Positions 13,252 through 60,665 of a DNA stretch of 64,000 nucleotides are shown in pieces (the first letter of the stretch is position 1; every line of letters begins with the position of its first letter). The notes below the pieces were generated by a model that had not been told where the DNA came from, did no database searches, and worked only from the letters and a program-made list of their open reading frames with translations. Source of the DNA: Eledone cirrhosa (lineage: Eukaryota); assembly GCA_964016885.1 (NCBI GenBank), contig OZ024743.1:290656001-290720000 (forward strand), read 5' to 3'. The position numbers were made by a program, and so were the translations under genes.

Positions 13252-13291
<40 letters not shown>

Positions 13292-13293
<2 letters not shown>

Positions 13294-13500
13294 GTTATTC
13301 CGGGTTGAATCGGAGGTAACCACAGTAAGTAAGGTACTCAATACATAGCAGAGTATAAAAGTTTTAATATAGATGAGATTCTACAGGACTAGAACTGTTT
13401 CATTCATTAGAAATCATCAGGAATCTCATGATAGATTCCTGATGATTTCTAATGAATGAAACAGTTCTAGTCCTGTAGAATCTCATCTATATTAAAACTT
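13292..13500. repeat. Palindromic PLE pLTR-like cassette (family A) with 68-bp perfect inverted arms
   Basis: 13359-13426 is the exact reverse complement of 13433-13500, with a 6-nt spacer (catgat). 13292-13426 is the reverse complement of ~14391-14522. Confidence 0.9.
13433..13483 (+). ncRNA. Type-I hammerhead ribozyme (family A); mirror copy on - strand at ~13373-13429
   Basis: Stem I agattc/gaatct, CTGATGA core, stem II t-ttc(taat)gaa-t, GAAA, stem III acag/ctgt, predicted cleavage GUA after 13477. Confidence 0.85.
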
Positions 13501-13694
13501 ATATATATATATATATGTGTGTGTTTAGGTGCATGCATGTTTAAGGTGTGTATATATGTATATATATGTGTGTATATATATATTTAAAAAAAAAATAAGA
13601 CTTCAGTTGCATTTTCGATTTCATCTCTTTTTCTTTATACTTCCACTCGTGTAGGACACCTCGGTTATTTTTCATTTTGTAAAAAAAACCTCAC

Positions 13695-13770
<76 letters not shown>

Positions 13771-14096: not shown

Positions 14097-14390
14097 GTGT
14101 AGGGGGATGCGCGCGCGCGTGTGTGTGTGTGTGTTTGTGAATGTGTCTGTTGACATTTGGAATATATATAGCTTAAGAGAAACTTAAAAGTAAGGAGTGG
14201 CACCCCATTTTTAACTTGTTTGTAGAATTATCTCTACCTTTGTTACTCTAAATATAAACTATAGCTTTAAAGAATTAGCTTTTAATGAATCCCTTTTCTA
14301 TCAACCAATGACCTCTACCCATCCCACTCCCCTACCCTCTCCTACCACCTGAAGAGGCCTATACATACCATATTTATTTTTTGATACCCA

Positions 14391-14522
14391 GATTCCCAAT
14401 GATTTCTAAAGAATGAAACAGTTCTAGTCCTGTAGAATCTCATCTATATTAAAACTGTTATACTCTGCTATGTATTGAGTCCCTTACTTACTGTGGTTAC
14501 CTCCGATTCAAGCCGGAATAAC
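14391..14522 (+). repeat. Third copy of the family A pLTR with mutated HHR core
   Basis: agattcCCAATGAtttctaaagaatGAAAcagttctagtcctgTAgaatct; the CTGATGA core is changed to CCAATGA. Confidence 0.8.
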
Positions 14523-14986
14523 ATATATATATATAAGTATATATACATGTTTATTATTAAAGTTTCTTATTTATGAGAAAGGGAATATGGTTCAACATGT
14601 CAGGATTCACTTGATTGAGAAGAAAATTGAATTGACTTGAAAAGAGAATTTGTTGTGCTGTGATGTGTGTGTGTGTGTGTGCATGTGTGTATATGTGTGT
14701 GTGTGTGTATGCGTGTGTGTGTGTGTATGCATATTTGTATGTGTGTTTGTCTGTGTGTGCAAGTTTGAATGGATGGAGATGCATTCTATGAAGCGTATCT
14801 TCAGTATGAAGTTAAAAATAAAGAGAAAAACAAGAGAAAATAGAATTGAAAATACAAAGTATGACTGAAATATACTCGGGGAGGCGTAGCATACTCATAT
14901 GTCAAGGAAAGGTTTCGGCTTTATGTAGTAAAAGTTTAGGTATGAAATATTTCATTGCTCATCTCCATTTTCCCATCGTGAAAAGT

Positions 14987-15029
14987 ACGGTGCTGACGAT
15001 AGCTAATAAGCTTGAAACTAGTACATCGT
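14987..15029 (+). ncRNA. Minimal type-I hammerhead ribozyme B1
   Basis: acggtg CTGACGA t agct aata agct t GAAA ctag TA catcgt; stem I acggtg/catcgt and palindromic stem III (actagt). Confidence 0.85.
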
Positions 15030-15450
15030 TTCTTTTTCAGTGTTGAACAAAAGGGCAACGACTGTTGCTCAGTGTTGAACAAAAGGGCAACGATGGTTGC
15101 TAAACACTGTACGGCTTAATTCGGGATGTTTGTTTACAAACAAACCGAGCATTATAATAAATGTTCGGTAAATCCATACGTACATATATATATATGTGTG
15201 TGCATGTATGTATATATATACATACTACTGTACGTCTGTATACATATGTGTATGGACGTATACATACTCATATCTAAGTAACAGCCGTACTAAGAGTGAG
15301 AAATGGAACTTCGTTTCATTTTTTCCGTTTATCGTTTTCGGTACGCCCGGCCGATTAACTCACTCGATATGCAAATTAGGCTGCTCAGCCGTTAATATGC
15401 ATAAGGAAAGTATATACTTTCAGACGTTCAATCATCTGGTAGGAAGGTAT

Positions 15451-15493
15451 ACGGTGCTGACGATAGCTAATAAGCTTGAATCTAGTACATCGT
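15451..15493 (+). ncRNA. Minimal hammerhead B2 (GAAA changed to GAAT)
   Basis: Identical to B1 except for the A15.1-to-U change. Confidence 0.7.
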
Positions 15494-15630
15494 TCCATTG
15501 TCAGTGTTGAACAAAAGGGCAACGATAGTTGCTAAACACTGTACGGCTTAATTCGGGATGTTTTTTACAAACACACCGAGCATTATAATAAATGTTCGGT
15601 AAATCCATACGTACATATATATATCTGTGC

Positions 15631-15681
<51 letters not shown>

Positions 15682-15785
15682 CTACTGTACGTCTGTATAC
15701 ATATGTGTATGTACGTATACATACTTATATTTAAGTATGTATACTTACAAAGTGTGAGAAATGAAACTTCGTTTCATTTTTTCCG

Positions 15786-15866
<81 letters not shown>

Positions 15867-16074
15867 GTAAGTATGTATACGTACATTTATATATGTATAC
15901 AAATGTACAGTAGTATGTATATATATATACATACATGCACACTTATATATATGTACGTATGGGTTTACCGAACGTTTATTATAATGTTCAGTTTGTCTGT
16001 AAACAAACAGCCCGTACTACGCCGTACAGTGTTCGGCAACAATCGTCACCTTTTTGTTCAACACTGACACAGGA

Positions 16075-16117
16075 ACGATGTACTAGTTTCAAGCTTATTA
16101 GCTATCGTCAGCAGCGT
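16075..16117 (-). ncRNA. Minimal hammerhead B3
   Basis: Minus strand reads acgctg CTGACGA tagctaataagctt GAAA ctag TA catcgt. Confidence 0.82.
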
Positions 16118-16500
16118 ATACCTTCCTGTCAGATGATTGAACGTTTGAAAGTATATACTTTCCAATGCATATTAATGGCTGAGCTGCCTAATTTGTATAT
16201 CGAGTGAGTTAGTCGGCCGGGTGCACCGAAAACGATAAATGGAAAAGAATGAAACGAAATTTCATTTCTCCCTCTTAGTACAGCTGATACTTAAATGTAA
16301 GTATGTATACGTACATATATGTACACAGACGTACAGTAGTATGTATATATATACATACATTCACACATATATATATATGTACGTATGGGTTTACCGAAAA
16401 TTTATTATAATGTTCGTTTTTTTTTGTAAAGGAACAGCCCGAATTACGCCGTACAGTGTTCGGCACCATAGTCGCCTTTTTCTTCAACACTGTCACAGGA

Positions 16501-16535
16501 ACGATGCACTAGTTTCAAGCTATCGTCAGCATCGT
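16501..16535 (-). ncRNA. Decayed hammerhead B4
   Basis: Minus strand reads acgatg CTGACGA tagctt GAAA ctag TG catcgt; stem II is partly deleted and the triplet is GUG. Confidence 0.6.
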
Positions 16536-16572
16536 ATACCTCGTTTACAAACAATATATATATATATATAAA

Positions 16573-16785
16573 CACGTAAAATTCCGTTATAATAAATACC
16601 GTTATAACGAATTTGTCAGTATAAAGAGTTTGTTTCCAATCTCCGAGCAAACAAATGCTAGATTTATTACGTCGATCTCGTTATAAATAATTCTTAGTTA
16701 CGATCATTTTTATATATCATTTTTATATATCATTTTATATATTATTTTTATTCCCCATGAATTTCGTTATAACGGAATTTCACTG
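16573..16785. mobile_element. pogo/Tigger-like MITE
   Basis: Termini cacgtaaaattccgttataa ... ttataacggaatttcactg followed by TA, with internal repeats of cgttataa. Confidence 0.7.
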
Positions 16786-18236
16786 TATATATATATATAT
16801 ATTAATTATATCTTTGATCCAGCAAAACGTGGTCTCATCTACTGAGCAATCTATTCTTTGGATGCCTGAATACAACTGACTTAGAAGATGACTATACGAA
16901 CATGATAATATGATAATAAATAATACAATTTGAAATATTGAACATATTTTCTGTGTGTTCAAAACTTATTCATAACAACCAAAAATATTTAATTTCCCTT
17001 GCTATTTCCATGCATTCAAAAACAAAGTTGTCTGTAATCAGCATGCACAGATATGGTACGAGAAGCCGTATATAATGAGCTAATGAGCATATGTATGCGT
17101 GTATATGTGTGTGTTTGACAGTGTATTTGTTTGCGTCACCTTGTATATATTTGTGAAGATCTTCATGAGTTTGTTTTAATATATTTCCCAAGACCTTATC
17201 AGCGTACATCTTAACGAATTATAAAAGAAACATGATTTTAGGTCTGTCCATATGTAATCATCTTGTTCATTTTGATATTGGAGAGAAGACACGGTAAAAT
17301 CAAGAGTTTCGCAAGTGACAAATATATATTGAGTGAGTGACATTGGCACCTCATATTATTTAGCATAACTGGACAAAGCAACTTCTGAAACATCGATAAT
17401 TACATGTAACTGTGACTATAAAACAATACTTGGAATTCATTTTGCAATTTCTTTTTAATATTCAGATCATTGTTGTTATTTCTCTATTCATATTTTGCAG
17501 AGATATAACGCCATAACCATTTAAACTTCACGTTTCTGTTGTAGTTCAATTGTAATGAATGTTTGTATTGCTTTTAGGATTTGTACATTCGTTGATTTTT
17601 TAGGAGTTTCTAAGTATTATGGTTAAGATATCAAATGTTATCAAATGTTATCATAATACTTTGTAAATGCATGATGACACATCGAGGAATGTTCCGTGTA
17701 ATCGTTTGTCTCACGAGGTTTTACAACTTTCATGTATTTTATTATAATATGTATGCCACAATTAATTCTAGTACAATCCGATTACGTTTTATATTTTATA
17801 TATCAGTCTAGCCTTACCGATGTCTACTGAGATTTGCTGGTGCATGGGGGATAGGTATATACTCTCAACATGTTTGAGGAATATCTATGTATATTTACTG
17901 CCATAACATTAATTCCGTGATCTTAAATTTATACCCGATTGAACAGCACTTTGATGTAGAGAATATACCCCTAGAATTCCTTTTGACCAACTTTACAGCA
18001 TTCAAGTTTGTTTACTAACACTTGTGTTTGATTTACGTCAGTCACTAGTGTATATTAAGTAGAGAATGTGGAGCAACCACCTCTCTCTCTCAGTCCACCA
18101 GATGACATAAATTCGTTCATATATACAGAGAAATACATGCGACAAGAAACACATTGCATAATTGCAAGCGAATCGAATATTATTAATATCGAAAAACTCA
18201 GATTTACATTTCTTATATATATATAAATATATATAT

Positions 18237-23749: not shown

Positions 23750-25393
23750 TATCTAAGGCGGGTAAAATTTCCGAGATCCATGGACGAGTTCTCTCCAGCG
23801 GTCTCTGTCCCTCATTATCGCTGCCATATCCTGCATCTCCAACAGACCAGTGTCTGTCCTTAGGGCATCAACATATGTTAACCTTGGTCTTCCTCTTCTA
23901 GTGTGTCCATGTAGTGGCTCCCAAAGGAGCACTCAGCGCAATGTCAACTTTGGATGTCGGTGAGCATGTCCAGCCAACCTCAGTCTCCTCTGTGTCACTT
24001 TTGAGCTGACTTTGGGGATGCTCCCATACAGCTCAGAGTTTTTCATCCTCAGTGTATACTGATTAATGTTCAGAGCCATCCTCAGCATTCTCGTGTAGCA
24101 CCCATCCACCATCTGAGTGAGTTTCTTGGTCAGTGTCCAAGTCTCAGACCCATACAGCAGCACAGACTCCACTACAGCAATGAAGAGGCGGATTTTCAGG
24201 TCTCTACGAAGGTCCGACTTCCACACCGATCTCAAGCTGTGGCACGCCGCCCAGGCCTTGCTCTTCCTCTCAACCACATCATCTTCCGTATTCCCAATCT
24301 TTGCTCCCAAATACAGGAAGTCCTCAACCAATTCCAGCGGCTTCCCGCCCACATTAGTGATCCCCTCTGGCTTCTCAACATTCTCTACCAGATATTTTGT
24401 TTTAGTCTCATTCATTCTCAGCCCCACACTCATCGACACAGTCTCAACCTCCCGCATACAATCCTCTGCCTCCTTCACTGTATTTGTCACCAAAACTATG
24501 TCGTCGGCAAATTCAGCATCCGATACATTTTTCGCCCTAACTCTCCTGCTCTGAGCCGGTGCTACAGTAAAGCCAGAGTCCTGGTGTTTCTCCAGTGCAA
24601 GGCGCATACAATAGTCCACTACGATGATAAAAAGGTAGGGAGCCAATGTATCTCCCTGGAGCACTCCAGCCAGTATCTCAAAGAACTCTGTCATCCCATC
24701 AGGTGTAATGACTTGGGCTTTGGTGTTGGTGTAGAGCAGTGATACCAGGTCCACTATCTTCCTGGGGATTCCATAAGCCTGTAAGATCTTCATCAGGCAG
24801 TAACGGTCCACAGAATCAAAGGCCTTCCTAAAGTCAATGAAAACCATGACCGCTGGAAGGCACTTTGCTCTAGCTCCCTCTACTATCCTCCTCAGCATCA
24901 GGATGTGACTGGTGGTTGATCTACCCTCTCTGAAGCCGTTCTGGTTGTCCCTGAGCTTCCTCTCCATCTCAGGCTGGATCCTGTTAAGAATCATCCTGTT
25001 GAGGGTCTTTGCCACAAGTGACGTCAGTGAGATCCCCCGGTGTTAGAGAGATCTCCCTTCTTTGGCACTGGGACGATGTTACTGATCCTCCACTGATTCG
25101 GGGCAACTCCTTTCTCCAGTGCCCCGTTACAGAACCCCAGGATGATATCATCAAAATCACACCTCTTCATCACCTCTGATGCCACTCCATCTTCTACATG
25201 AGCCTTGCCCTCCTTGATCTTCTTCTTGGCTCTCTGAAGCTCCTCTCTGGTGAAGGGGTCTGTCTCAACATCCAGTTCCTCAAACAGCCGCCTGATCTCC
25301 CCAGTGCTCTGGGATGTGGAGGGTGGCTCTCCTAGTAGGGTCCTAAACTGGTCTAGCCATTTCCTCTTCCTATCCTCGGGCCCCGTTCCCTGG
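23750..25393 (-). mobile_element. 5'-truncated RTE-clade LINE
   Basis: ORF 23933-25015 has RT motifs QNGFR, DFRKAFDSV, GVLQGDTLAP, FADDI and FLYLG. It continues past a premature stop to RRGRP and DRDRWR, and is bounded by (TA)n tracts. Confidence 0.95.
23933..25015 (-). pseudogene. RTE reverse transcriptase domain (truncated)
   Basis: 360-aa ORF with non-LTR RT motifs; the endonuclease domain is absent. Confidence 0.9.
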
Positions 25394-25459
<66 letters not shown>

Positions 25460-25876
25460 ATACTTGGGTAGGGTCATATTTGTGTAATATTGCCAGAATT
25501 AATAACAGAACACACTCACTGTTTGGTTGGTTTTCGCTTTTCGCTTCTGTGTCTTTTATATCGGTAATTTAATTTATTCGGTCCTCAATGTTGCCATTGA
25601 CTGACCAACGGTCAAAAATACAGATACAATATAGACACAAACACATATATATAGTTTATCAAAGTTCTTTCGTTGCACATCTGCAGCATCGTCAATGGCA
25701 ACATTGAGGACCGAATGAATTAAATTACCGATATAAAAGACGCAGAAGCGAAAACGAAAACCAACCAAACTGTGAGTGTGTTATGTTATTAATTCTGGCA
25801 ATATTACACAAATATGACCCTCCCCAAGTATAACAATATTTGTTTCGACACATTTCATATCAAAAACCTCGCAAAA

Positions 25877-28540: not shown

Positions 28541-28843
28541 TAAAATAAAGTTAAATAAAAGTCAAATGATTAAAATTTAGCTTCGTTTATTACTTATATA
28601 TATTTCAGTGACAGCCATCTTTGGCTGTGACCTCTTCAGGCAGTTTGAATTAGTATGGTATAGACAAGTACATATGTTGTTTAGGTGTATGATATTGTCA
28701 ATACTCTGATATGCCCTTGTCTATACCATACTAATTCAAACTGCCTGAAGAGGTCACAGCCAAAGATGGCTGTCACTGAAATATATATAAGTAATAAACG
28801 AAGCTAGATTTTAATCATTTGACTTTTATTTAACTTTATTTTA
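28541..28843. repeat. Fold-back cassette (family D): 128-bp inverted arms, each with an HHR core
   Basis: 28541-28668 versus 28716-28843 with one mismatch and a 47-nt spacer. CTGAAGA ggtcacagcc(aaagat)ggctgtcact GAAA tatataTA starts at 28745. Confidence 0.88.
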
Positions 28844-28918: not shown

Positions 28919-29350
28919 TAATCTAGATGTCGTCTGTTCTACAGTGTGGATGTAATTCACTTCGCGCAGAAGTTTTGTTCAAATTTATTGCGGAAATTTT
29001 GTGAGTTCAAGTTTAATTTTGATACTATTGTGTAGCTTGACCCCCCGTCAGGCGGTGGGTCAGCTCATCTTTACCCCTCCTAGAGGTGAAAAACCTATTT
29101 TAAAAAATTTGGGGGCAAAAAAAGTTCAATCGGCTGACAGAAATGTTAAACGAAGCGAACGAAAATAGAGGTGGGGGGACAGCGGTAAGAGTTGTAAGCT
29201 CGCACGCTTTAGTCCCCCCTTCCTTCCCAACTAACGTCATAGAGAAGGAAGGAAAATTAAAATAAAAACAGACGAATCTGGGGAGAAAAAAAATGATGAA
29301 AACACAAATCTGGACATGGATTCCAACAACGAAAAAAAAGATTTGAAAAA

Positions 29351-30811
29351 TTGCATGACAATATTAACACCACAAACAAAGACACAACAAACACAAAAAT
29401 AACATTTGAAAATAACACCATAACAGAAAGCAAAGCAGACGACAGAGTCAAGATTTCATTTGCACAAACAACAAAGAAATCTTTGACATATGTAGCCGAA
29501 AATATTTCAGATGTGGCACGAAGAATCACAGACGCCAAACAATACATAAGTGAAGGAGAGAATGGTATTTTATCGGTAAAAATGCCTGAAGAACTCACCA
29601 AAGACATTGAAAGTCGAGCGGTCGTGTTCCGCACCATTAACAACACTACAAAAAAACCTGAACAGCCTTCTCAAGCAGATATCAAAACAGTACTCACAGA
29701 AATACTTAATGAAACCACTTTCATAAGAAAAGACAGACTGTATGGAAGCCTAGCAATTATCATGAAGAACGAATCGGCGGCAAAAAAATGTGCTTTGTCA
29801 CCGATTCGTTCGAAAAATTTTACCTTTTATCCATCTTATATGGGTAAAAGAACTCAACGCATATGGCTGAATGCAATGATGCCAGATGTGGACTACTGCT
29901 GGCTCATAGCTGGCTTCATCGATCCAGTGAATGACAACGTGATTTCCATTGGGAAAACCACAGGCAATGCCTTCAGTGGAACAGGAATAGAGCTCGTAGT
30001 GCAAATGAAGCCTGAACGCATCGCCCAAATACCCGACAGAATCCTATTAGAGGGCCACGGGTATATAAACATTAGCGTGGAGGGGAGAAGGCCGTCCTGT
30101 CATATCTGTGCAGGCAGAGGACACCTGAAGGCCGCTTGTCCCCAACTCAACAAAAAGAAAACCCTGCTAGCAACACCAGCTCCACCACCACAACAGATAA
30201 ACAAACAACAAAACTCAGCCCCACCCAACCCGTCCCTCAGTAAAACTACACCACCACCACAACACAAACAGTCACAACACATTACCCCAAAACAAAATAC
30301 AGGCTCACCCAACCCCTCACTCAATAAAACAACACAACCACCGCAGACACAACACACAACACAGTCTAACATAGTGACATCCATCTCCCCCACAAAGAAA
30401 ACCAACACGGAAACATTACCAGCAAACATACCTCTTCCCTCCAACACTGAAGATGACCCAACGAATTCGGAGGAAGAAACGGAGTCCTTCAGACAGATTA
30501 AAAGGAAAAGAAGAAAACATGTGCAAAACACACAAGGCCAAACAACCTCCACCCAAACCTCAACACAATCCAACAAAACAGAAAACACCCCTCCAGCAAC
30601 AAACAAAACCAAACCAGCCCCTCCCCTCTTCGAAACACTCACACCATCCGAGAAAAAGACATTACACTATACTTACATCAACAGAAACAATAATAAATTA
30701 AATGAACTCATATACAATAATCCTTCGGTACAAACCGAAGGTGTAAACTTTGTTTCTTCAGAAAACTACCCACATTTAAAATTAATAAAGATCCCAATGA
30801 ACCTCTACTAA
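29351..30811 (+). CDS. LINE ORF1 (gag-like, zinc knuckle, P/T/Q-rich tail)
   Basis: 486-aa ORF with EGRRPSCHICAGRGHLKAACP. The true ends are probably ~29143 and ~31039, interrupted by lesions. Confidence 0.82.
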   Translation: MHDNINTTNKDTTNTKITFENNTITESKADDRVKISFAQTTKKSLTYVAENISDVARRITDAKQYISEGENGILSVKMPEELTKDIESRAVVFRTINNTTKKPEQPSQADIKTVLTEILNETTFIRKDRLYGSLAIIMKNESAAKKCALSPIRSKNFTFYPSYMGKRTQRIWLNAMMPDVDYCWLIAGFIDPVNDNVISIGKTTGNAFSGTGIELVVQMKPERIAQIPDRILLEGHGYINISVEGRRPSCHICAGRGHLKAACPQLNKKKTLLATPAPPPQQINKQQNSAPPNPSLSKTTPPPQHKQSQHITPKQNTGSPNPSLNKTTQPPQTQHTTQSNIVTSISPTKKTNTETLPANIPLPSNTEDDPTNSEEETESFRQIKRKRRKHVQNTQGQTTSTQTSTQSNKTENTPPATNKTKPAPPLFETLTPSEKKTLHYTYINRNNNKLNELIYNNPSVQTEGVNFVSSENYPHLKLIKIPMNLY

Positions 30812-31072
30812 AAACTAAAAAAGGATTTTTAGGAGGACGTAGGACCACCCTCTGTCAAACCCATAAAACGCGTCCTACTAAAAAGCTTTCCCCCTCCCCT
30901 TCCCCTCCCCAACATAACTCCAAACACCCTAACCCCACCACACACTGACGACCCCACACCACCACAAGACATCCCTTCACCCAACACCCCCGACCCCATG
31001 GAAGTCGTGCGACCCGAACCCCGAGAAGCGGAAAGGTAGGTCTCTACACTCTCCTTTGGCTCTGCCGCCCAC

Positions 31073-34000
31073 ATGGATGTGTTAAGAGTAGGATGTTTAA
31101 ATGCACGTGGCCTGGGCTCAACTTGGAAGCAAGCAAAGCTTCTAAATGACCTCAGGTCATGTGGTATAAATGTAATGATTATCTGTGAGACTCGGATCAG
31201 CGTCGTCCGGCAGCTGGCCCCTACCTCGATGACTTTGAGGTGCATGCATCTCTCTGTCAACCTGGAGGTGGGGGTGGGGTTGTCGTGCTGCTGCAAAAAC
31301 ACCTGGGTCTTTCCGTACAGGTCGTGCACTCGGACCCGGAGGGTCGTTTGTTGGTGCTAGACGTTGGTAGTAGTGAAGGTGCGGCCTTAAGACTGGTCGC
31401 CGTCTACTCCCCTTTCGGAGCTGAACGGCCCGACTTCTTCAGGCGTTTAGAGACTTTTCTAGGAACGTCTCGTTCCCTGCTTCTAGCGGGGGATTGGAAT
31501 GACATCCTAGATGCACGTTGGGACTATGCAGGAGCATGTCCTAATAGAGGGGGGTGTAACAGCCTCAAGGGGTTACTCGACCTTTTTAACTTGGTCGATA
31601 GATATCGACTAGATTTTCCAACTGTGCCTACCTGGACTTGGAGAAACCACAGTGGTCAATCTAGATCGTACTTAGATAGATTCTTAGTTAGAAGTAAGGA
31701 TAGGGACATATTAAGCTGTCCAGAAATGCGCACGGTTGGCTACACGGATCACAAATTAGTGACCTGCGTAGTCAATCTCGAGAAAACACATAAACAGGGT
31801 CCCGGTTACTGGAAACTTAATTTGTCTTTACCGGCAAAAGAGACTTACAGAAACCGGATTAGCAGATTAGTTAAGGAGAGGTTGACGGGTGCAATCGTCA
31901 ACAACCGATGGTGGGCATCTCTCAAAAGAGAGATTAAAACCGAATCAATAAGTTATAGCAAGATGTTAGCTGCCGATAGGAATAGAAACGAGAAAGAATT
32001 AACAGGCAATTAAGAGGCAATCAAGAGCGAAGATGTGGCCAGAGTGCTGGCATCGAGGACGGCCTTGAACCAGATTTTCGATGCAAAGCACGAAGGCTGC
32101 GTCATTCGAAGTAAAATACGTGCTCTAGGTAATGAGGGGGCCAAAGCCGTTGGCTGGGCCCGCGTGACAGAAGCTAAGAGTCGAAATCGATCCACCATCC
32201 GGTCGTTGCAAGACGAAGATGGACGGGTGATCCGGGAGCCTAAGCAGATGTGCGAGGCCTTTCAAAGGCACTTTGCCCGATTGTTCGGGGGAGGCGAGGG
32301 TCCGGGCGGGGGCGTGGATTTCGGTCCATAGCTCGACGGCCTGCTGCGTCTCTCGAGCGAAGAGGCAGAGTCCTGCGAGGGACCAATCTCGGCTGATGAG
32401 ATCGGAGATGCGCTGAGCCAATGCAGCAGACGCAAATCTCCAGGTCTCGATGGTATACCTTACGAACTTTATTTAGCAATACCGGTCTTCTTCTCCGAAC
32501 TCCTCGAAGCGGTCTACTGCAATTGGCAGCAGAACGGGAGAAGTCCTTGTTCTGTAGCCAAGGGCGTAGTCACGCTGGTGAGGAAGGACGAGAACAAGGG
32601 AGATAGTATAAATAATTTTCGGCCCATAACCCTGCTAAACACAGAGTTAAAGATTTTGATCAAGGTGTTAGCAAAGAGGTTGGCGCTTGTCGTGGGTGGC
32701 CTGGTGGGAGATGCGCAGACATGTGCTATCCCATCCAGGTCCATTCACGATAACCTCCACCTCATGCGATACATCATAGAGAGGGTTGGCAACAAACCCG
32801 GCTTCGGTGGGGCCCTGATCAACTTGGATCAGTCTAAGGCCTTCGATAGGGTCGACCATGGTTAACTGGATGCGGTGCTAGCGGCGGCTGGGTTCGGTCC
32901 TGTTTTCAGAGGCTGGATCACTGCCTTACATAGCAACCACATCTGTTCTAGGATCAAGGTGAACGGCTACCTTTCGAAGCCGTTCGAAATCACACGATCC
33001 GTTCGACAGGGGTGCCCTCTCTTCTCCCTTCAGTACGTATTGATTCTCGAGCCTTTACTGAAGAAGTTGGAGTTGTTGCAGGGTATCCCCCTGGAACCAG
33101 GATTGAGCAAAGCGGTGTCGGCCTACGCCGATGACGTAACAGTAATGGTATCGACCGACTCGGAGATCGAGGCGATCGGTACCTTACTGGAGGAGTACGA
33201 AAGGTTGTCAGGAGCGAAACTGAACCGGGAAAAATCCATCGGGCTGCAACTCGGAACGTGGAGAGGCAGACCGATGCCTCCTGACGGTGTCGTCGGACAC
33301 TGGACGGAGGGCCCGGTAAAGTTGCTTGGGCTCTGGTTTGGACCGGACCTCCAGGCGGAAAAGAACTGGAACGAGGTTACGAACAAGGTGTTTGCACTAA
33401 CCCAGAAATGGGCCAAGTGTAAGCTGTCCCTAAAAGGCCGGGCGGAGGTGGCGAACATTTACATAGCGTCCGTCACTTACTACCGCCTGACTGTCGTGCC
33501 TTGCCCTAAGGAAACACTCACCACCATGGAACGCATGCTCTTCCAATTTCTTTGGAAGAAGCGCCCTCCTATGGTGAGAAGATCCATCTGCTGCCAACAA
33601 CCTTCGAAAGGAGGGCTGGGGTTGCCGTGGTTGATGATGCGGCACCTACAGGTATTCCTCACTGGTCAACCGGTGTGGGTTCCGTTCGTGAAACGAGCCT
33701 TTCCGAGACTCATCTCGCTCACCGAGCTACAGTCCTGGGTCAAGCAAAGATCCGGAAAACTGGGAGACTGGCACACTGAGTATGCTCTGGCGCTCAGGGC
33801 TCTCTGGCAAGCGGGCCAGGCCATCGGTGGAGAATCCACCTCATCATTCTATAGAGGGCTGGTGGCTAGCAGGGGCGATGACACACTTGGAGAGTCGCTG
33901 GACATGGAAGAAGACGAACTGGCCAGCCTTTTCGGTAGGAATTTCGGCCCAGGACCAATGGACAACTTCCAGAAGTCACTGGCCTGGCAGTTCTACCGGG

Positions 34001-34497
34001 GGGCTCTACCCGTTCGAGAGAGGCTCTACAGACACGGGCGCCCGGGCAGGGATCCCTCAAAAAAGATTTGCCCTAGATGCGTGCGTCACGAAGAAACCGT
34101 TGCGCACGCAATTGTGCAATGTCCGGGCGTGGCTGATCTGTGAGGCTACGCCGAACGACTGCTGTCGCGGGTGGCGCCGATCAAATTGACCGCCGAGTCC
34201 GGGATGACAATCAAACCGCCTCCCCTCTTCACAAAGGAAGCAAAGGCGGTTTTTCTGTGCGTAATAGCCATGTTGAAAGAGGTTCTTTGGTGGACACGAT
34301 TGAAAGGTCTGAGGTCAGGCAACTTCCTCTCTGGCCATAGTCTGGTCTACTTCTTCCGATATCACTTTGGAAGAAGGATAAGAATGGAGAGAGAGGTGCT
34401 TGGCCACAGGCAGTTTTATGAAAGGTGGGTGATAGTGGCGAGAATGGCTCGTGTAAGTGGGCCTTCTCTGTATACCATCCTTTACGTAAATAAGTAA
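31073..34497 (+). pseudogene. LINE ORF2 (APE endonuclease + RT + C-terminal zinc finger), with frameshifts and stops
   Basis: Motifs LNARGL, AGDWN, SYLDRF, TDHK, FRPITLLN, DQSKAFDRV, RQGCPL, AYADDV and CPRC..HEETVAHAIVQC. Stops at ~32011, 32329, 32863 and 34141. Confidence 0.93.
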
Positions 34498-45470: not shown

Positions 45471-47091
45471 AGAGATATATCAGAACGCTAAAATTGGTCA
45501 TTCATGACGATCTGAACATGCGCAAAGTTTTGTGAATGAAGATCAATGACAGGCGTGCTGATGACAGCAGAGAGATCTTCGAGTGGCTCGCTTGAAATAC
45601 ATCTGTCGTTGAGTCTCTGATAACCTGTGAGCCCAAGAGACAACTTACTCAGTGCATTGAATTTGAAGGATCCAACTTGCAAGATTGTTTTCATGATCTA
45701 AGTTAAATACATGTATCTGATGAAAGTCTCAACATCTCTTGAGTGTTTTTGGTATATGAGGAATGGGTTTCGTATATGAGAACACTGACTTACAATCCCT
45801 TACGAGATCAATATAATGAAGTATTAGTAAAGTACGGTTAACTGCTGAAATAGGGAATCGGAAGCGTTGCCTTCAGATATTTTACCAGTTTTATGCGTTT
45901 TTGGTTAGAACATGTGCATTACTAGTTTGTTATACATAATACTGAGCTCGGCATATTACCATCACGAAGATCTTCGTTGTTGACAGTGGAGTCAAATCTT
46001 CCGCAAGAATTCTAACGTTACATCTCTTTTGATTATAACCTCCTATCCCCTTCGAAAGAGATTTAGAAATTGAGTTTTTACTCCAGTTCTGAACAGTAAA
46101 AGGAAAATGTCATGTTTCCTGTCTCAGTTTGAGATTTTGCCGTCTGTTCTCTGTTCGTAACATCCAATTCTCGCAACTCCCGGAAGAATGCGGATTTGAC
46201 CCCAGCAAACACAGAACCAGTCCAAATATCTCAGAGATCCCTGTCGGACTTGAACAATTCATCCAAATCACTTCTCTTAGACAGTTACTGAGTTTAATAA
46301 CTCCGAAGAGATAAAAGGTAAAATTGACTGCGGCAAGATTTGAACTCAGGGCGCAGAAAAACGAAACACATACCAATGCTTTTCAAACGAAAATCTAACG
46401 ATCCATTGGCATTCAAAGTGGCTTTGAAACGATTGACGTGACTCCTAAAGGAGTAAGAGGAGGAAGATGTATGTCACCTTCAGTAGTAGGTCTGTTTATA
46501 GTAGATAGCATTAACATATGTTCTATAGAACCGTTATATATGCGAAACAATGGAATGTAGATATCAGTCACAAAACATTAGACGTTGGATGTAGATTAAT
46601 AACGTTTGCATTGGTAGCCAAATACTTTATCTAATCACTTCTTTCGCATTTTCTAATTAAAAACAACCCACACGCATTTTAAACAGGGAATTAACTAACG
46701 GACAGTTTTTGATTACAGTTAGGTGGCATGAACAATTTAGCCGTGACAGTGATATGGTACGAGAGTGTGACCCGTCACCCTGTTAAGAATTCGATTTGTG
46801 ACGCCAACTTTAAACAAACAAAATCCGAAAAAAACAAACAATAAAAATATCCATGGCTTCATTTTAAAGATAGCAATAAATTTGTGTTGGGTTATGAAAT
46901 TAAGCTGCAAACAATAATTAAAAATGTATAGAAAATGAATGAATAAATAAAATCGTCAGCAGAAATGATTTAGCAGAGTTTATTATTATGATTATTATTA
47001 TTATCGTTATCGTTATTCCTTGAATCTCAGTCATTGATGTTGGTTAACTGGAAAGTCCGTTGGATTGAATATCAAGCCACTACCTGCAGAC

Positions 47092-49020
47092 TCAGATATT
47101 CAGGACGTATCGGAGGGTTCTTGCCGTTCCAAGCAAGCATGCCTTTTGAAGCGTTCCAAAAAGCGTGAAGGGGCCGATTTTCTTTAACCATCCCTGGAAA
47201 CCTTTGGAGATAGTCCCCAGTGCGCCTATGACAATCGGGATCACTTTGACTTCATGGCAGTTCCAAATCCTTTTCACCTCCCACTTTAGGTCCTGGTATC
47301 GGTTAATTTTCTCCCTCTCCTTCTCTTGCACTCTCGTGTCGAACGGGCAGGCCACATCCACAATCAGGCACGATCTTTTTTCTTTGTCCACAACCACCAG
47401 GTCAGGTCTATTGTGTTCCAGTTTTTTGTCCGTCTGTATCCTAAAATCCCACAGCACCTTCACCCGACTGTTCTCCATCACCGCCTCTGGCCTATGCTCA
47501 TACCATTTCTCAGAATGTGGTAGATTGTTTACTTTGCACAGGTGCCAGTGGATCACCCTGCCCATCACATCGTGTCTCCAGCCCTTATAGTGGGTCTGGG
47601 ATAGGTGTTTACACTCGGACACAATGTGAGCCACAGTCTCCTCTCTCTCTCCACAGATCCTGCACAGTGGGCTAGCCTCCTCCTTGTAGATATGGTGCTT
47701 CAACCACTTCGTTTTGAGGGCCTGCTCCTGCGCAGCCATTACCATTCCTTCTGTAGCCTTTTTGAGGTCTCCTCTTCTCAACCAGTTCCATGTCTGTGGA
47801 TCTCTAAATTCAGTTTTCTCAAAGAAGGTACTATGAAGGGATTTTCCCTTAAGGCTGCTCTTCCACCTTGATGTTATTTCCTCCTTGGGTATCCCCTGGC
47901 CTACTGTCCCCTCCTTCAGTACAGCTCTGAGCATTGGCTCCTTACTATAGGTCACGTATTTGTATAGGTTGTTTTTCTCCATCTGAACACAGTCCTCTAT
48001 GCTGATAAGACCTCTTCCACCCTCAGATCTCCTTAGGTAGAGTCTATCGACATCACTCCTCTTCTGGAACATGTTGTAGATAGTCAATAGCTTCCTAGTC
48101 TTCCTATCCATTTCTTTTTGTTCAGCAACATTCCATCTCAGAATTCCCGCACTGTACCTAATAATAGACACAGCTCGGGAATTTACTGCGCTTATGGCAT
48201 TTCTGCTGTTCAGATGTGACTTCAATACGCTCCTTACTCTCCGAATGTATTCAGTTCTTAACAATTCCTTCATTTTTTTGTTCTTTATGCCATCAGCCTC
48301 CAGAACGCCCAAATACTTGTATCCTTCCTCAGAGTCAATTTCCTTTATCATCTCACCTGTTGGTATCTGGATCCCGTTACTTCTGCTCAACCTACCCCTC
48401 CTCATCACAATGACTCCACATTTACCAATACCAAACTGCATACATATATCACTGCTGAAAATACGGACAGTGTCAACAAGCACATCCAACTCCTTCTCAC
48501 TTTTCCCGAAGAGCTTAAGATCGTCCATGAAGAGGAGGTGATTGATGGTAAGCTCTCCCCTTCCCAACTTGTATCCTGCTCTCACTTTTCGCAGCATAAT
48601 GGTCAAGGGCATCAGGGCAAGGACAAACAACAGAGGGGACAGGCTATCTCCCTGGAAGATACCTCTCTTGATCTTCACGCTTCCCAAGGATACTCCAGTT
48701 GATGTCAACTCTGTCTCCCAGGACCCCATACTCCTGCCCAGCAACTGTCTGATGTTATCTGCCACCCTGAAGATCTCCAGGCTTTTGGTGATCCAGGAAT
48801 GAGGCACCATGTCAAATGCCTTTCTGTAGTCTATCCATCCCATGGCAAGATCAGTGTGTCTCCTCCCGCAATTCCCCATTACCATCTTATCAATAAGCAA
48901 CTGGTCCTTTGTACCACGTGACTTCTTTCGGCATCCTTTCTGTTCGTCCGGCAACAAGTTGTTTGTGTGGAGGTGATGGTAGATTTCCTCAGACACAATG
49001 CTCGTCAACAGTTTCCACAT
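47092..49020 (-). CDS. Dong/R4 RT + zinc finger + restriction-like endonuclease (C-terminal 642 aa, open)
   Basis: Uninterrupted ORF with the motifs listed above. Confidence 0.9.
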
Positions 49021-49195
49021 TACGGGCAGACATGTGTGTTTGTTTGTTTATGTGTGTCCGTATACAGCGTGGTGATAATGCCACACAAGGGCCAAGTGGG
49101 ATGGCGGATCCACAGATGGCTATGTAAACATACATTCGCCAATCCTCGATAAGAGTGTTTAAATATCGAACATAAACAGTTCGAATAACGGTGAA

Positions 49196-50500
49196 ATGGA
49201 GACTAGAACGTCATGTGACAGACTCTCACCCAACAGGTGCCCCCTGGCTCAGCAGCAGGAACCTGACTGTCAACCAAATACTGCTGATGTTGGAGGAAGA
49301 AGAAGAAGGAAAGGGGCCAGAACCAACTGGACGAAAGAATTGAATAGAACTGTTATGCAATGCTACCTGAAAAGTAACCCCAAGGAGAGGGGCTACAGGA
49401 GACGGATGCATAACATCTGGAACGAGATTGGTTTATTTAAATTAGATGAACAAAAATTGGCCGGGCAGGCTCGGGTAATAAGAACTAATGGGTGGATAAG
49501 CGAGCTGGAGCTGGAGGAACTGAGCAGAGAGAATGGCTTGGAGATGGCGGGTGTAGTATGCCAGACAAGCGAGCCGGCGGGAAATGAAGGTGAGGAGGTC
49601 CTGAGAACGGAGGAACCACCCGAAGCAGACAATGATCTGAATACTGAGATAAATAATAACTGGAACAGAGAAACGGCCACTGAGGAGATGAATGCTGACG
49701 GGCTAGGACAAGATTCGGTTGACATCCTAAATTTAGTGGTAGATGAGTTGAACAATGATAGTGGGAGACCTATGAACCTAAGATTTGTAGACAGGAAAAA
49801 GTTAAAAGAAACAACAGCTAAGGTAAACAAAGTCATCCCATACCTTGAGGCGAGGAGTCTTCACCAGTGCAACAATATCCTCAAAGCAACAGCAAATACG
49901 GTGAGGAAACTACTTGGTATAAAAGCGAGAGGAAACAACAGACAAGAAAGAGCAGAGCCGTGGTGGAAGAAGCGACTGAGTGGGCAAATCGGGGAAATGA
50001 GAAATGACATAGGAAAGCTTGAGTCACTACTGAATGGGACACTAAAAAACATAGGCACTAAAAATAGACTGGAAATAAAATACAAAACTAGGAGTAAAAA
50101 GCTAAATATTATCATAGAGGAATTGAAGCAACGCATTGTAGCAAAGAGTGCCAAAATCAGGCGATACGAGAACAGAGTCAGTCAGTATAAACAGAACCGC
50201 ATGTTCGACAACAACCAGAAGATGCTGTTTGGACAGCTTGAGGGGAAAGAAAGAGGCAACGACTTGATCCCTGGGGCGGAACAAGCTAAAACATTCTGGA
50301 GAGGAATATGGGAGCAGGATGTTAGACACAATGCCCAGGCAGGGTGGATTGAGACAGTACAGAGGGAGATCGGTGAGCAGGCACAGCAACAGACTGATTT
50401 GAGTATCACAGTTGAAACTCTTAAGGGGCAAGCCAAAAAACTAACCAACTGGAAATCACCAGGCCCAGATGGTGTGCAGGGTATTGGATTAAACATTTAA
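49196..50500 (+). CDS. Dong/R4 N-terminal region (inverted segment)
   Basis: WTKELNRTVMQCY...GYRRRMHNIW, PWWKKRL, KIRRYENR, FWRGIW and WKSPGPDG; frameshift near 50483. Confidence 0.88.
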   Translation: METRTSCDRLSPNRCPLAQQQEPDCQPNTADVGGRRRRKGARTNWTKELNRTVMQCYLKSNPKERGYRRRMHNIWNEIGLFKLDEQKLAGQARVIRTNGWISELELEELSRENGLEMAGVVCQTSEPAGNEGEEVLRTEEPPEADNDLNTEINNNWNRETATEEMNADGLGQDSVDILNLVVDELNNDSGRPMNLRFVDRKKLKETTAKVNKVIPYLEARSLHQCNNILKATANTVRKLLGIKARGNNRQERAEPWWKKRLSGQIGEMRNDIGKLESLLNGTLKNIGTKNRLEIKYKTRSKKLNIIIEELKQRIVAKSAKIRRYENRVSQYKQNRMFDNNQKMLFGQLEGKERGNDLIPGAEQAKTFWRGIWEQDVRHNAQAGWIETVQREIGEQAQQQTDLSITVETLKGQAKKLTNWKSPGPDGVQGIGLNI

Positions 50501-50607
50501 CATCCCTCCACCCGAAGCTGACGGCCATGTTCAATGACTGCTTGGTGTCGGGTGAGGTGCCAGAGTGGTTGACAAAAGGTACCACAGTTCTGATAATGAA
50601 AGACCGA

Positions 50608-50645
<38 letters not shown>

Positions 50646-50647
<2 letters not shown>

Positions 50648-53600
50648 CTTGAATCTCAGTCATCGATGTTAGTTAACTGGAAAGTCCGTTGGCATGAATA
50701 TCAAGCCACTACCTGCAGCCTCAGATATTCAGGACGTATCGGAGGGTTCTTGCTGTTTCTAGCAAGTATGCCTTTTGAAGCGTTCCAAAAAGCGTGAAGG
50801 GGCCAATTTTCTTTAACCATCCCTGGAAACTTTTGGAGATAGTCCCCAGTGCGCCTATGACAATCGGGATCACTTTGACTTCATGGCAGTTCCAAATCCT
50901 TTTTACCTCCCACTTTAAGTCCAGGTATCGGTTAATTTTCTCCCTCTCCTTCTCTTGCACTCTCGTGTCGAATGGGCAGGCCACATCCACAATCAGGCAC
51001 GATCTTTTTTCTTTGTCCACAACCACCAGGTCAGGTCTATTGTGTTCCAGTTTCTTGTCCATCTGTATCCTAAAATCCCACAGCACCTTCACCTGATCGT
51101 TTTCTATCACCGCCTCTGGCTTATGCTCATACCACTTCTCAGAATGTGGTAAATTGTTTACTTTGCATAGGTGCCAGTGGATCACCCTGCCCATCACATC
51201 ATGTCTCCAGCCCTTATAGTGAGTCTGGGCTAGGTGTTTACACTCGGATACAACGTGAGTAGCAGTCTCCTCTCTCTCTCCACAGATCCTGCACAGTGGG
51301 CTAGCCTCGTCCTTGTAAATATGGTGTTTCAACCACTTCGTTTTGAGGGCCTGCTCCTGCACAGTCATTAACATTCCTTCTGTAGCCTTTTTAAGGTCTC
51401 CTCTTTTCAACCAGTTCCATGTCTGTGGATCTCTAAATTCAGTTTTCTCAAAGAAGGTACTATGAAGGGATTTTTCCTGAAGGCTGCTCATTCTCCTTCA
51501 TGTTATTTCCTCCTTGGACATTCCCTGGCCTATTGTCCCCTCCTTCAGTACAGTTCTGAGCATTGGCTCCTTACTATCAGTCACGTATTTGTGTAGGTTG
51601 TTTTTCTCCATCTGAACACAGTCCTCTATGCTGATAAGACCGCTTCCACCCTCAGATCTCCTTAAGTAGAGTCTATCGACACCACCCCTCTTGTGGAACA
51701 TGTAGATAGTCAATAGCTTCCTAGTCTTCCTATCCATTTCTTTCTGTTCAGCAACATTCCATCTCAGAATTCCCGCACTGTACCTAATAATAGACACAGC
51801 TCGGGAATTTACTGCACTTATGGCATTCCTACTGTTCAGATGTGACTTTAACACGCTCCTTTCTCTCCTAATGTATTCAGATTTTATCAATTCCTTCATT
51901 TGTTTGTTCTTGATGTCATCAGCCTCCAGAACGCCCAAATACTTTATCCTTCTTCAGAGTCAATTTCCTTTATCATCTCACTCGTTGGTACCTGGATTCC
52001 GTTACTTCTGCTCAACTTACCCCTCTTCATCACAATGAATCCACACTTACTAATAGCAAATTGCATACATATATCAATGGTGAAAATACGGATAGTGTCA
52101 ACAAGCACATCCAACTCCTTCTCACTCTACCCGAAGAGCTTAAGATCGTCCATGAAGAGGAGGTGGTTGATGGTAAGCCCTCCCTTTCCCAACCTGTTTC
52201 CTGGTCTCACTTTTCGCAGTACACTGGTCAGGGGCATCAGGGCAAGGACAGACATCAGAGGGAAGATACCTCTCTTGATCTTCACGCTTCCCAATGGTTC
52301 TCCAGTTATGTTAATTCTGTTTCCCAGGACTTCATACTTTTGCCCAACAACTGTCTGATATTATCTGCCACCCTGAAGATCTCCAGGCTTTTGGTGATTC
52401 AAGAATGAGGCACCATGTCAAATGCCTTTTTGTATTCTATCCATCCCATGGCAAGACCAGTGTGTCTCCTCTTGCAATTCCTCATTACCATCTTATCAAT
52501 AAGTAACTGGTCCTTTGTACCACGGGTCTTCTTTCGGCATCCTTTCTGTTCGTCCGGTAACAAGTTGTTTGTGCGGAGGTCATGGTAGATTTCCTCAGAC
52601 ATAATGCTTGTCAACAGTTTCCACATTACGGACAGACATGTGATAGGTCTATAGTTGGTAACATCATTACCCTTGATTCGGTCTTTCATTATCAGAACTG
52701 TGGTACCTTTTGTCAACCACTCTGGTACCTCATCTGACATCAAGCAGTCATTGAACATGGTTGTCAGTTTCGGGTGGAGGGATGTTATATTTCTAAACCA
52801 ATACCCCTGCACACCATCTGGGCCTGGTGATCTCGAGTTGGTTAGTTTTTTGGCCTACCCCTTAGGAGTTTCAACTGTGATACTCAAATCAGTTTGTTGG
52901 TGTGCCTGTTCACTAAACTCCTTCTGTACTGTCTCAATCCACACTGCCTGGTCATTATGTTTAACATCCTGCTCCCATATTCCTCTCCAGAATGTTTTAG
53001 TTTGTTCCGCCTCAGCGATCAAGTCGTTGCCTCTTTCTTTCCCTTCAAGCTGTCCAAACAACATCTTCTGGTTGTTGTCGAACATGCGATTCTGTCTATA
53101 CTGGCTGACTCTGTTCTCGTATCGCCTAATTTTTGCACTCTTTGCTACAATGCGTTGCTTCAGTTCCTCTATGATAATATTTAGCTTTTTCCTCCTAGTT
53201 TTGTACTTTATTTCCAGTCTATTTTCAATGTCTATGTTTTTTAGTGTCCCTTTCAGTAGGGACTCAAGCTTTCCAATGTCATTTCTCATTTCCCTGATTT
53301 GACCACTCAGTCGTTTCTTCCACCAAGGCTCTGATCTTTCTTGTCTGATGTTTCCTCTCGCTTTTATACCAAGTAGTTTCCTCACCGTATTTGCTGTTAC
53401 TTTGAGGATAGTGTTGCACTGGTGAAGGCTCCTCGCATCAAGGTATGGGATGACTTTGATTACGTTAGATGTTGTTTCTTTTAACTTTTTCCTGTCTACA
53501 AATCTTAGGTTCATAGGTCTCTCACTATCATTGTTCAATTCATCTACCACTAAGTTTAGGATCAAATCTTGTCCTAGCCCATCAGCATTCATCTCCTCAG

Positions 53601-54262
53601 TGGCCGTATCTCTGTTCCAGGTATTATTTATCTCAGCATTCAGATCATTGTCTGCTTCGGGTGGTTCCTCCGTTCTCTCGACCTCTTCACCTTCATTTTC
53701 CTCTGGCTCGTTTGCCTGGCAACTCCACTCTCCATCTCCAAGCTAATCTCTCTGCTCAGTTCCTCCAGTTCCAGCTCGCTTATCCACCCATTAGTACTTA
53801 TTACCAGAGCCTGCCCGGCCAATTTTTGTTCATCTAATTTAAATAGAGCAATCTCGTTCCAGATGTTATGCATCCGTTTCCTATAGCCTTTCTCCTTGGG
53901 GTTACTCTTCAGGTAACATTGCACAACAGTTCTATTCAATTCTTTCGTCCAGTTGGTTCTGGTCCCTTTCCTTCGTCTTCTTCCTCCGACACCAGTAGTA
54001 TTTGGTTGACAGCCAGGTCCCTGCTGCTGAGCCAGGGAGCACTTGTTGGGTGAGAGGCTGTCACATGATATTCTAGTCTCCATTTCACCGTTATTCGAAC
54101 TGTTTAGGTTCGATATTTAAACACTCTTATCGAGGATTGGCGAATGTATGGTTACATAACAACCGGTGAATTCATTGTCTCCGGTGGTTCCGTCACTCCA
54201 CGTGATTTTTGTGTGGCATTATCACGCTGTAGACGAACATAAATAAACAAAAAAACAAACAG
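50646..54262 (-). mobile_element. R4/Dong family 1, full-length decayed copy
   Basis: Fragmented ORFs 54083-50721 are colinear with the copy above; the 3' end abuts (ATT)n at 50608-50645. Confidence 0.95.
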
Positions 54263-54867
54263 GCTAAAAAAAAACCAAAAATGAATAAGCATAAGTTTCA
54301 TTGTAATGTAGTGTTTGAATGTCTGACTTAGTTTTTCCCTTCCCTTCTCTGTCCGTCTGTTTGTTTTTCTCTTCATTCTTATTTCCTTTACGTTTTTCGT
54401 TGTTGCTGTGCTGCTTTGATTTTTATTTTTGTCTTTTTTTTATTTTGACCGCGTCATCAATTCAGTCTATTTGTATATTTTGATGCCTTCCCCTTTCAGT
54501 GGGGTTTCTACGATGTAGCAGGGGGTAACGGGAGAGAATAGCGGCGGTAGTGATAATGAGGCAGTGGTGGTGGTGGCGGTGCTGTGCTAGCAGCAACTAG
54601 CAGAAGGTAGTGGGAGAGAATAGCGGCGGTAGAGATAAATCATTATTAGGCAGTGGTGGTGGTGATGTGGTCGTATTACTGTAGAGATGGTATTGAAGTT
54701 GGAGTAGAAATAGCGGTTGAGTCGACTTAACCAGAGTTTTCATCGTGGTAGTGGTGGTGGTGTTGGTGGGGAAATGATCTTTAGTTATTTAGTCATTTTG
54801 TCATTTTCCTCCTTTTCGACTCTAACATTCCTGATCCAAAATTAAATATTAATCTTGTTTATTAATA

Positions 54868-55367
54868 TTGTCTAGTGATACCGCCATCTTCCCCTTTCGT
54901 AAGTTAACAGAAGGTAATGGGGGGGATAGCGGTGGTAGCAATGAAGGAGTGGTGGCGGCGGTGATGGGATAGTGGTAGTAATGATGGATGGGCGGCGGTG
55001 GCGGTGACTGTAGTGATGGCGTTGTCGTTACTGAGTTTTGTTGAATGAACTGTACTTTTGTTTGATCGGTGAATCTATGGGGTTAGTCGCGTATATGTGT
55101 TGACATAATTTTCCTTAATATTGGAATTAAACATTTTGTTAAAACTTGAGACAATAATAATAGTAATTACTATTATTATGCTGAGATTGGTGGTGGTGGT
55201 GGTGATATTGCCGTTATCTGGATAATGTGTTTAGTGTGCACAGAGGGGTGATGGGGTAAGTGGTGTATCTAGTTTCTGGTGTTGTTGAAATTGCTGTTAT
55301 TTGGCTGTTCTATATAGTGTAGACAGAGGGGGTTTTCTTCCATTTGTAACCATTTTCTTTTTTGAAT
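54868..55367. repeat. ~500-bp GGT-rich direct repeat, copy 1
   Basis: Matches 60158-60626 (ttgtctagtgataccgcc ... cattttctttttgaat). Confidence 0.85.
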
Positions 55368-55561
55368 ATAAAATGTATAATACAAAATTGAATATTTGAG
55401 AGATATAACAATATATTATGGATCCAAATTTCTTTGGGACTCAAGCCGGATGTTTTATGTATCATTTGTACTAAGATTTGTTTTTTCACAATTAATTTAA
55501 ATATGTTAAAAATCAAAACTTACGGGATCGATTTCACGACCTTGTATCCACCATGTGCGTA

Positions 55562-55621
55562 TTCTTCTTCTTCTTCTTCTTCTTCTTCTTCTTCTTCTTC
55601 TTCTTCTTCTTCTTCTTCGTC

Positions 55622-55688
<67 letters not shown>
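55562..55688. repeat. Compound (CTT)n(ATT)n microsatellite
   Basis: Direct reading. Confidence 0.97.
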
Positions 55689-55689
<1 letters not shown>

Positions 55690-59832: not shown

Positions 59833-60157
59833 TTTCTTTTTGTTGTTTTTTTTAAATTGTTCTTATCATGAGTGGTTCCTTAATGTGAGCATTGCGTGGC
59901 TTAAGAATGAAATTATTAATAATTGTCTCCACTCCAGGCACAAGACCAGCAATCACCCAGTGCATTACAATAATATAATATACTTTTTGTTGTAGTTGGC
60001 TGTTATTGTTGTTGGCTATGTCGGTGGTGGTGCCGGGGCTTTTTATATTGTTGGTGAGGAAGGGGTGAACCAGCAGTCCCATAGTTGTTGGTGTTGACGT
60101 TTGGCCGGTGGCCAGGTCACTAAGTCAATATATTTATATCTTTTGCTAGCCTCTCCC

Positions 60158-60626: not shown

Positions 60627-60660
<34 letters not shown>

Positions 60661-60665
60661 GTTAT

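Follow-up and report, generated by a model that had tools for sequence, protein, structure and literature searches.

An inverted pair of hammerhead (HHR)-bearing repeats faces a shared (TA)n tract in a 64,000-nt stretch of Eledone cirrhosa DNA (contig OZ024743.1, positions 290,656,001–290,720,000; hereafter, the window), within a 3.0-Gb genome rich in microsatellites. Is this layout a working unit, as implied by an original prediction of an ambisense retrozyme array, or did copies of a mobile family meet here, and how would such a family move?

The fold-back and its hammerheads

Aligned as inverted repeats, the two arms match over 688 columns with 84.6% identity, centred on a 73-nt (TA)n tract (15791..15863), so the predicted fold-back with arms of ~700 bp is real. 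The tract is common to the 3' ends of both arms and is their likely target. Arm 1 (14986..15790, plus strand) contains ~1.8 units; it is 5'-truncated immediately upstream of an HHR and terminates in what we call the LONG 3' end (…TTTTTCCGCTTAT, then (TA)n). Arm 2 (15864..16541, minus strand) contains ~1.6 units of a different subfamily and terminates at the SHORT 3' end of the family. Each arm consists of one full HHR-to-HHR unit plus a partial unit that stops at a fixed family end, and not of two units per strand as had been claimed. In unit coordinates the two arms start at similar points (u117 and u112). The HHR-to-HHR distances of 464 and 426 nt were reproduced from the cleavage sites (15023 to 15487 and 16507 to 16081, respectively). 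The units had been said to differ in the length of internal (TA)n, yet most of this difference comes from a 32-nt tandem duplication in the plus arm (15037..15068, second copy from 15069). The plus arm carries a tail of Penelope-like element (PLE) type (15726..15790, plus strand), the ~65 nt that separate its SHORT end site (CATACT|TATAT) from the LONG end. The boundaries of the insertion are two fixed PLE-type 3' ends, not HHRs, a feature that had been overlooked. At the locus, no stop-to-stop frame reaches 120 aa, and a tblastn search of the window with nine PLE proteins gave no match.

All four predicted type I HHR motifs are present, with cores at 14993 and 15457 on the plus strand and at 16529 and 16111 on the minus strand, and the palindrome ACUAGU is confirmed as helix III. 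B1 (14987..15029, plus strand) is an intact minimal type I hammerhead, in which the structure scan recognizes stem I (ACGGUG/CAUCGU), CUGACGA, a 4-bp stem II with a U-U base, GAAA and ACUAGU; the predicted cut falls after 15023. B2 (15451..15493, plus strand) has GAAU in place of GAAA (A15.1) and keeps the GUA site at 15487. On the minus strand, B3 (16075..16117; H17 at 16081) has an intact core and a C-U mismatch in stem I, while B4 (16501..16535) has lost 8 nt of stem II, carries a GUG cleavage triplet (16507) and is predicted to be dead. One mutated HHR per pair had been noted at the outset. This holds for B2 and B4, which are altered, but the mismatch in B3 had been missed, leaving B1 as the one intact HHR of the four and neither arm with two.

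An Rfam scan gave no hammerhead match at E ≤ 1; all 81 matches fell below gathering scores, and almost all were miRNA models placed on TA-rich hairpins, which we regard as noise. Single HHRs fold no better than shuffled sequences (z from –1.3 to +0.2), as expected of minimal hammerheads. Folded as double hammerheads, B1+B1 reaches –19.0 kcal/mol, versus –6.5 kcal/mol per monomer, and B1+B2 reaches –17.0 kcal/mol. In the double-hammerhead model (PMC4209133), two copies pair via the palindrome and each core cuts the site of the other. Under this model, the plus arm could be cut at B2 by the B1 core but not at B1, the B2 core being mutated, and no cut would be possible at the GUG of the minus arm. 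Release of a monomer in cis should thus be expected from neither arm. Inactivity of the locus had been suspected, and we agree: with one HHR of four intact, it is probably inactive, an ordinary pile-up of two copies.

A retrozyme family with PLE-type insertion marks

The two arms belong to a family of non-coding ~430-nt repeats, for which the copy at L047 serves as unit reference. Exact matches to a 34-nt HHR pattern number 23,085 genome-wide, far more than chance would give, versus none for the reversed control. Because just 53 of the 95 complete HHRs in similarity-ranked loci fit this pattern, we estimate, roughly, ~40,000 copies; first-look candidates from DNA similarity searches numbered 636 and 950. 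At one extreme, copies are fragments, and at the other, arrays of eight head-to-tail units; one copy (L035) has a 110-nt deletion within the unit. Arrays contain 3–7 intact HHRs spaced ~420–510 nt apart, and 69 of 137 HHRs that had not been picked by the pattern are intact. The core of the original prediction, that non-coding tandem units with minimal type I HHRs form a family of retrozyme type, is thereby supported. Contigs from three sequencing runs of one sample contain the family with the same variants, and the exact HHR pattern had no match in metagenome and viral contigs. Our literature search, which did not extend to Repbase and Dfam, where the family may be catalogued, found no description of it or of tail and inversion marks in retrozymes.

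Is cleavage under selection in this family? One stem I pair varies among 134 copies not picked by the pattern, being T-G in 60, G-T in 57, A-T in 10, G-C in 1, T-A in 1 and unpaired in 5. The covariation is real and extends across subfamilies, though it may mirror just one or two events in source lineages. HHR columns seemed conserved when pattern-picked loci were included (P = 0.003), but this contrast is lost upon their removal (P = 0.4–1.0), so the case for selection on cleavage is carried by the one covarying pair.

To describe how copies end, we mapped 92 loci, comprising 54 similarity-ranked loci, the first 35 pattern matches on C1 and 3 loci beside GIY-YIG matches, after removal of overlapping loci and two likely segmental duplicates. 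Among their 164 arms, 135 end at one of two sites (73 LONG, 62 SHORT), with the other 29 truncated or unclassed. The SHORT site lies ~60–65 nt upstream of the LONG site; counted downstream from the cleavage site, they fall at ~210 and ~276 nt, respectively. Most 3' ends in the family pass into (TA)n, with TAT or TATAT microhomology at both end types. By comparison, 5' ends are spread uniformly across the unit (107 arms; KS P = 0.73). The commonest paired layout is divergent, with arms joined 5'-to-5', and here the ends follow a strict rule. With LONG and SHORT assigned by regex rules that leave 23 of 74 divergent pairs unclassable, one arm is LONG and the other SHORT in all 41 classifiable pairs (of 59), and again in all 10 classifiable pairs (of 15) from 29 further loci. 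In total, 51 of 51 classifiable pairs are LONG+SHORT; none is LONG+LONG or SHORT+SHORT. The family bears PLE-type insertion marks: 5' truncation, 5' inversion, fixed 3' ends with a tail, and a (TA)n target.

The same marks have been described for PLE insertions, which are truncated at the 5' end, have an inverted copy there, bear a tail on one end only and favour (TA)n (PMC8557442). For a purified anole PLE, the tail is the stretch between two internal RT start sites, both target strands undergo cutting and extension, and the protein is predicted to dimerise (PMC11167929). The one-long/one-short rule agrees with such paired start sites and two-strand activity. We envisage that a PLE RT-endonuclease, probably a dimer, would nick both strands of a (TA)n tract; within the RNA, the LONG site would serve as the start of one cDNA and the SHORT site as that of its partner, and the two truncated cDNAs would then join 5'-to-5', or one would integrate alone. 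The family is best read as a non-LTR retrozyme acting as a non-autonomous PLE mobilised in trans. Our full explanation, to which we give a probability of about 80%, combines an abundant ~430-nt retrozyme, likely mobilisation in trans by Neptune-type PLEs, two likely independent insertions at one (TA)n tract, and a locus that is probably dead.

Like EN+ PLEs of the Neptune clade (PMC8557442, PMC11167929), the family combines 5' truncation and an inverted 5' partner with a preference for (TA)n, carries its tail on one end only, and has its HHR, with a palindromic helix III, upstream of the 3' end. Unlike these PLEs, the Eledone unit has no ORF, and its tail is longer (~60–65 nt versus 30–40 bp). 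In addition, its ends show TAT/TATAT microhomology to (TA)n, whereas the RT starts of anole Poseidon are non-homologous to the target (PMC11167929). No unit copy sampled is joined to an RT + GIY-YIG ORF between pLTRs, as in an autonomous EN+ PLE. Non-autonomous Chlamys PLEs such as MRC1 are likewise non-coding, with multicopy, head-to-tail insertions in microsatellites (PMC8557442). Their 3' end resembles that of an autonomous family, and most Chlamys elements lack a canonical HHR; the Eledone family, in contrast, keeps its HHR and has no clear parent in the loci sampled. With metazoan non-LTR retrozymes (PMC7229834; bioRxiv 10.64898/2026.07.22.740005), the family has in common non-coding tandem type I HHR units, low GC, copies from monomers to multimers and the presence of PLEs. 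Its U-U stem II base and 2-bp helix III recall HHR_Amex2 of axolotl (PMC7229834). At 430 nt, the unit of this family, known here from DNA alone, is slightly above the 170–400 nt given in the first of these sources and inside the 51–972 bp of the second. Fixed 3' ends, tails, 5' inversions and (TA)n targeting, by contrast, belong to the Eledone family and are not described for retrozymes in the portions of the two sources available to us.

How retrozymes move has been discussed in both. The 2020 paper named PLEs as strong candidates (PMC7229834); the 2026 preprint, as far as its accessible text goes, draws its case from co-occurrence and phylogeny, proposes that units are amplified locally in tandem and does not settle how they are mobilised (bioRxiv 10.64898/2026.07.22.740005). 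The Eledone family displays marks of PLE integration directly and at scale, including the strict rule for inverted pairs, and it defines a short RNA with exact start sites suited to in vitro work. For specialists, the interest lies in this family-level rule, not in the window locus.

The RNA template and the mobilising element

What RNA would a PLE copy? One possibility is that tandem transcripts of intact arrays self-cleave as double hammerheads paired by their ACUAGU palindromes; ligation would then close the products into unit-length circles, which as templates would give multi-unit insertions. By analogy with other species, we give this combination of self-cleavage and a circular template about even odds. 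A stricter version is tentative, and we think it rather more apt to be wrong than right: here, the hammerhead-processed ~430-nt circle would be the direct template for twin-primed rolling-circle RT by a Neptune PLE dimer, whose subunits obligatorily start ~60–65 nt apart and prime on TA microhomology. If true, the circle template reading would provide the first genomic record of the integration of an animal retrozyme circle, and a minimal PLE integration substrate.

The same non-autonomous PLE family could instead be copied from linear read-through transcripts of a few master arrays, with the HHR a passenger or a trimmer of the RNA and no need for a circle. We hold this to be a serious alternative that falls a little short of an even chance. 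For the anole PLE, insertion in vitro was not reduced by HHR mutants, and no RNA-seq ends were found at the cleavage site (PMC11167929, in the part of the paper available); eight of nine Xenopus retrozyme dimers did not cleave in vitro, according to the available text of the preprint (bioRxiv 10.64898/2026.07.22.740005). In Eledone, 5' ends show no excess near the cleavage site (6 observed versus 5.2 expected), and rare variants in 68 multi-unit events are seldom shared by all units of an event (11, versus 147 singletons). Against linear copying stand the covariation of the stem I pair between subfamilies and the comparable elements of mussel, coral and axolotl, for which circles have been shown, with PLEs proposed as mobilisers (PMC7229834). 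Some arrays of 6–7 units are nearly uniform, and in 6 of the 68 events rare variants are common to both arms; these patterns suit a single monomer copied in rolling fashion, and a homogeneous master as well. Arrays in which variants alternate with a period of two units (ABAB) occur at L146 (1429–3273, 15 columns) and L156 (1746–2750), and point to dimer-length templates or to duplication of a dimer. Uniform arrays, variants shared across arms and ABAB patterns fit circles, homogeneous masters or local duplication alike.

For either template, mobilisation in trans by a Neptune-type PLE is likely. The genome holds 10,595 first-look GIY-YIG candidates. Sampled PLE ORFs combine RT and GIY-YIG, and most have the CX4CXXC linker described for Neptune PLEs (PMC8557442). 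Several coding PLE families have (TA)n ends, and their HHRs combine U-U with palindromes, ACCGGU or AGUACU among them. In L106 and L109, the two coding inverted pairs for which both ends were read, a long end is matched with a short one. Resemblance of the unit to these coding families was weak: at best, 47 columns resemble the short end of a single Neptune family (z = 3.8, in one of 21 tests). One coding Neptune-type PLE family has left its 3' end and tail in the window at 13573–13705; this stretch is near-identical to L079 and gives way to (TA)n, and no ORF remains in the window. Downstream of ORFs at L085 (1900–2450), L075 and L089 lie HHR-like motifs of several coding Neptune-type families, in which the first cores are altered (such as UUGAUAA and UUGAAAA) and palindromic helix III is retained.

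Might the unit itself be the pLTR of a coding PLE, its copies being 5'-truncated remains that underwent local tandem amplification? The HHR, tail and inversions of the family are of PLE type, and Li et al. 2026 derive retrozymes from pLTRs through local amplification (bioRxiv 10.64898/2026.07.22.740005, as far as its accessible text goes). Moreover, at L102 a PLE ORF precedes the unit on the same strand, and at L045 a weak RT-like remnant (28%, E = 2e-5) lies ~600 nt upstream. Even so, the coding element at L102 ends before the unit, at its own HHR and TA tract. The unit joins itself head-to-tail, in up to eight units, and none of 45 unpaired arms passes at its junction into sequence shared with another locus. 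At none of the 50 GIY-YIG loci examined (of >10,000 candidates) does the unit form the terminal repeat of a coding PLE; copies present in three of the 50 are unrelated neighbours. An outcome that the original prediction had named as fatal to it, a unit confined to the ends of coding PLEs, was thus not seen in the loci sampled. A search with a different stem II and the same palindrome gave 191 matches; of the 100 listed, almost every one is a point mutant of the retrozyme family. These results make an origin of the copies as remains of coding PLEs improbable.

Convergent arms and neighbouring elements

The arms of the window locus are convergent, meeting at their 3' ends. They differ by 10.7–14.4% and carry different subfamily variants. 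For reference, 97 comparisons between arms of divergent pairs give a median difference of 3.0% and a maximum of 10.0%, and median differences are 1.1% between units of one arm and 8.7% between loci. The plus arm is ~2% from its nearest relatives, and its own two units are 3.7% apart. The minus arm is 6.7% from its nearest relatives, and its two units differ by 13%, compared with a maximum of 9.8% within arms elsewhere; this arm may be a mosaic. Its two units have variants in common that are absent from the plus arm. Because their divergence exceeds that of every normal inverted pair, the arms most likely inserted separately and came to share one (TA)n tract. In the sequence of events that we favour, the younger, LONG-ended arm would have inserted into the TA tract that follows the older, SHORT-ended arm.

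Exact convergent junctions over short TA tracts are rare genome-wide: we counted 18 LONG-SHORT and 37 LONG-LONG junctions, in a census that covered these two classes and left SHORT-SHORT junctions aside. Of the 17 LONG-SHORT convergent loci that we mapped, 7 have an inverted partner for each of the two facing arms, as befits neighbouring insertions. Several LONG-LONG sites are tiny fold-backs of the tail; those centred at L209, L213, L214 and L203 are near-perfect and span 37–66 nt across (TA)n. The same G/A variant is present on both sides in 33 of 37 LONG-LONG sites, which suggests hairpin-mediated duplication.

It is very unlikely that the two arms form a single functional unit, be it through ambisense transcription, as double-stranded RNA or as a MITE-like element with long TIRs, or that they stem from one inside-out twin-primed event: their LONG and SHORT ends and similar starts (u117, u112), and a convergent LONG/SHORT pair merely 1% apart at L141, are as a single event would give, but the window arms are 12.4% apart, differ in subfamily and apparent age, and have unique flanks with a layout that is not repeated as a unit, and convergent junctions are rare with a LONG-LONG majority unlike true pairs. 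Two of these versions were considered in their own right and rejected. A single twin-primed event resolved inside-out fits poorly with the arm divergence and the junction census. A MITE or fold-back DNA element is at odds with outer (5') ends that are random and with a convergent layout that is rare and built of unrelated insertions. The "ambisense" architecture proposed at the outset is not supported, since the arms exceed the 10.0% maximum of true pairs and such junctions elsewhere join neighbouring insertions; nor does the sequence of the locus hold any sign of ambisense transcription. At L141 (1386–4840), SHORT and LONG arms with similar 5' breakpoints flank expanded TA and unique DNA and may stem from one event that was rearranged or resolved differently.

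The convergent locus had been set against divergent cassettes at 13.4, 25.6 and 28.7 kb of the window. Divergent HHR pairs do occur at 13.4 and 28.7 kb, but the inverted cassette at 25.6 kb (25458–25839) has only a degenerate HHR-like core. In the pair at 28.7 kb (28541–28843), helix III is a TA palindrome. The pair at 13.4 kb (13290–13505) and a single copy at 14390–14555 belong to a second TA-flanked HHR repeat family, with a U-U in stem II and a longer helix III, which also occurs in L049, L096, L100 and L109 and may be another non-autonomous PLE. Adjoining the 5' end of the minus arm is a short element (16570–16790) with ~30-nt terminal inverted repeats and TA flanks, whose ends recur in several loci and which we take to resemble a Tc1/mariner-type MITE. 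Finally, long RT-like ORFs lie in direct and inverted repeats at 23933–25473, 29300–34143, 46980–63995 and 55831–58961 of the window, presumably resembling several non-LTR retrotransposon families.
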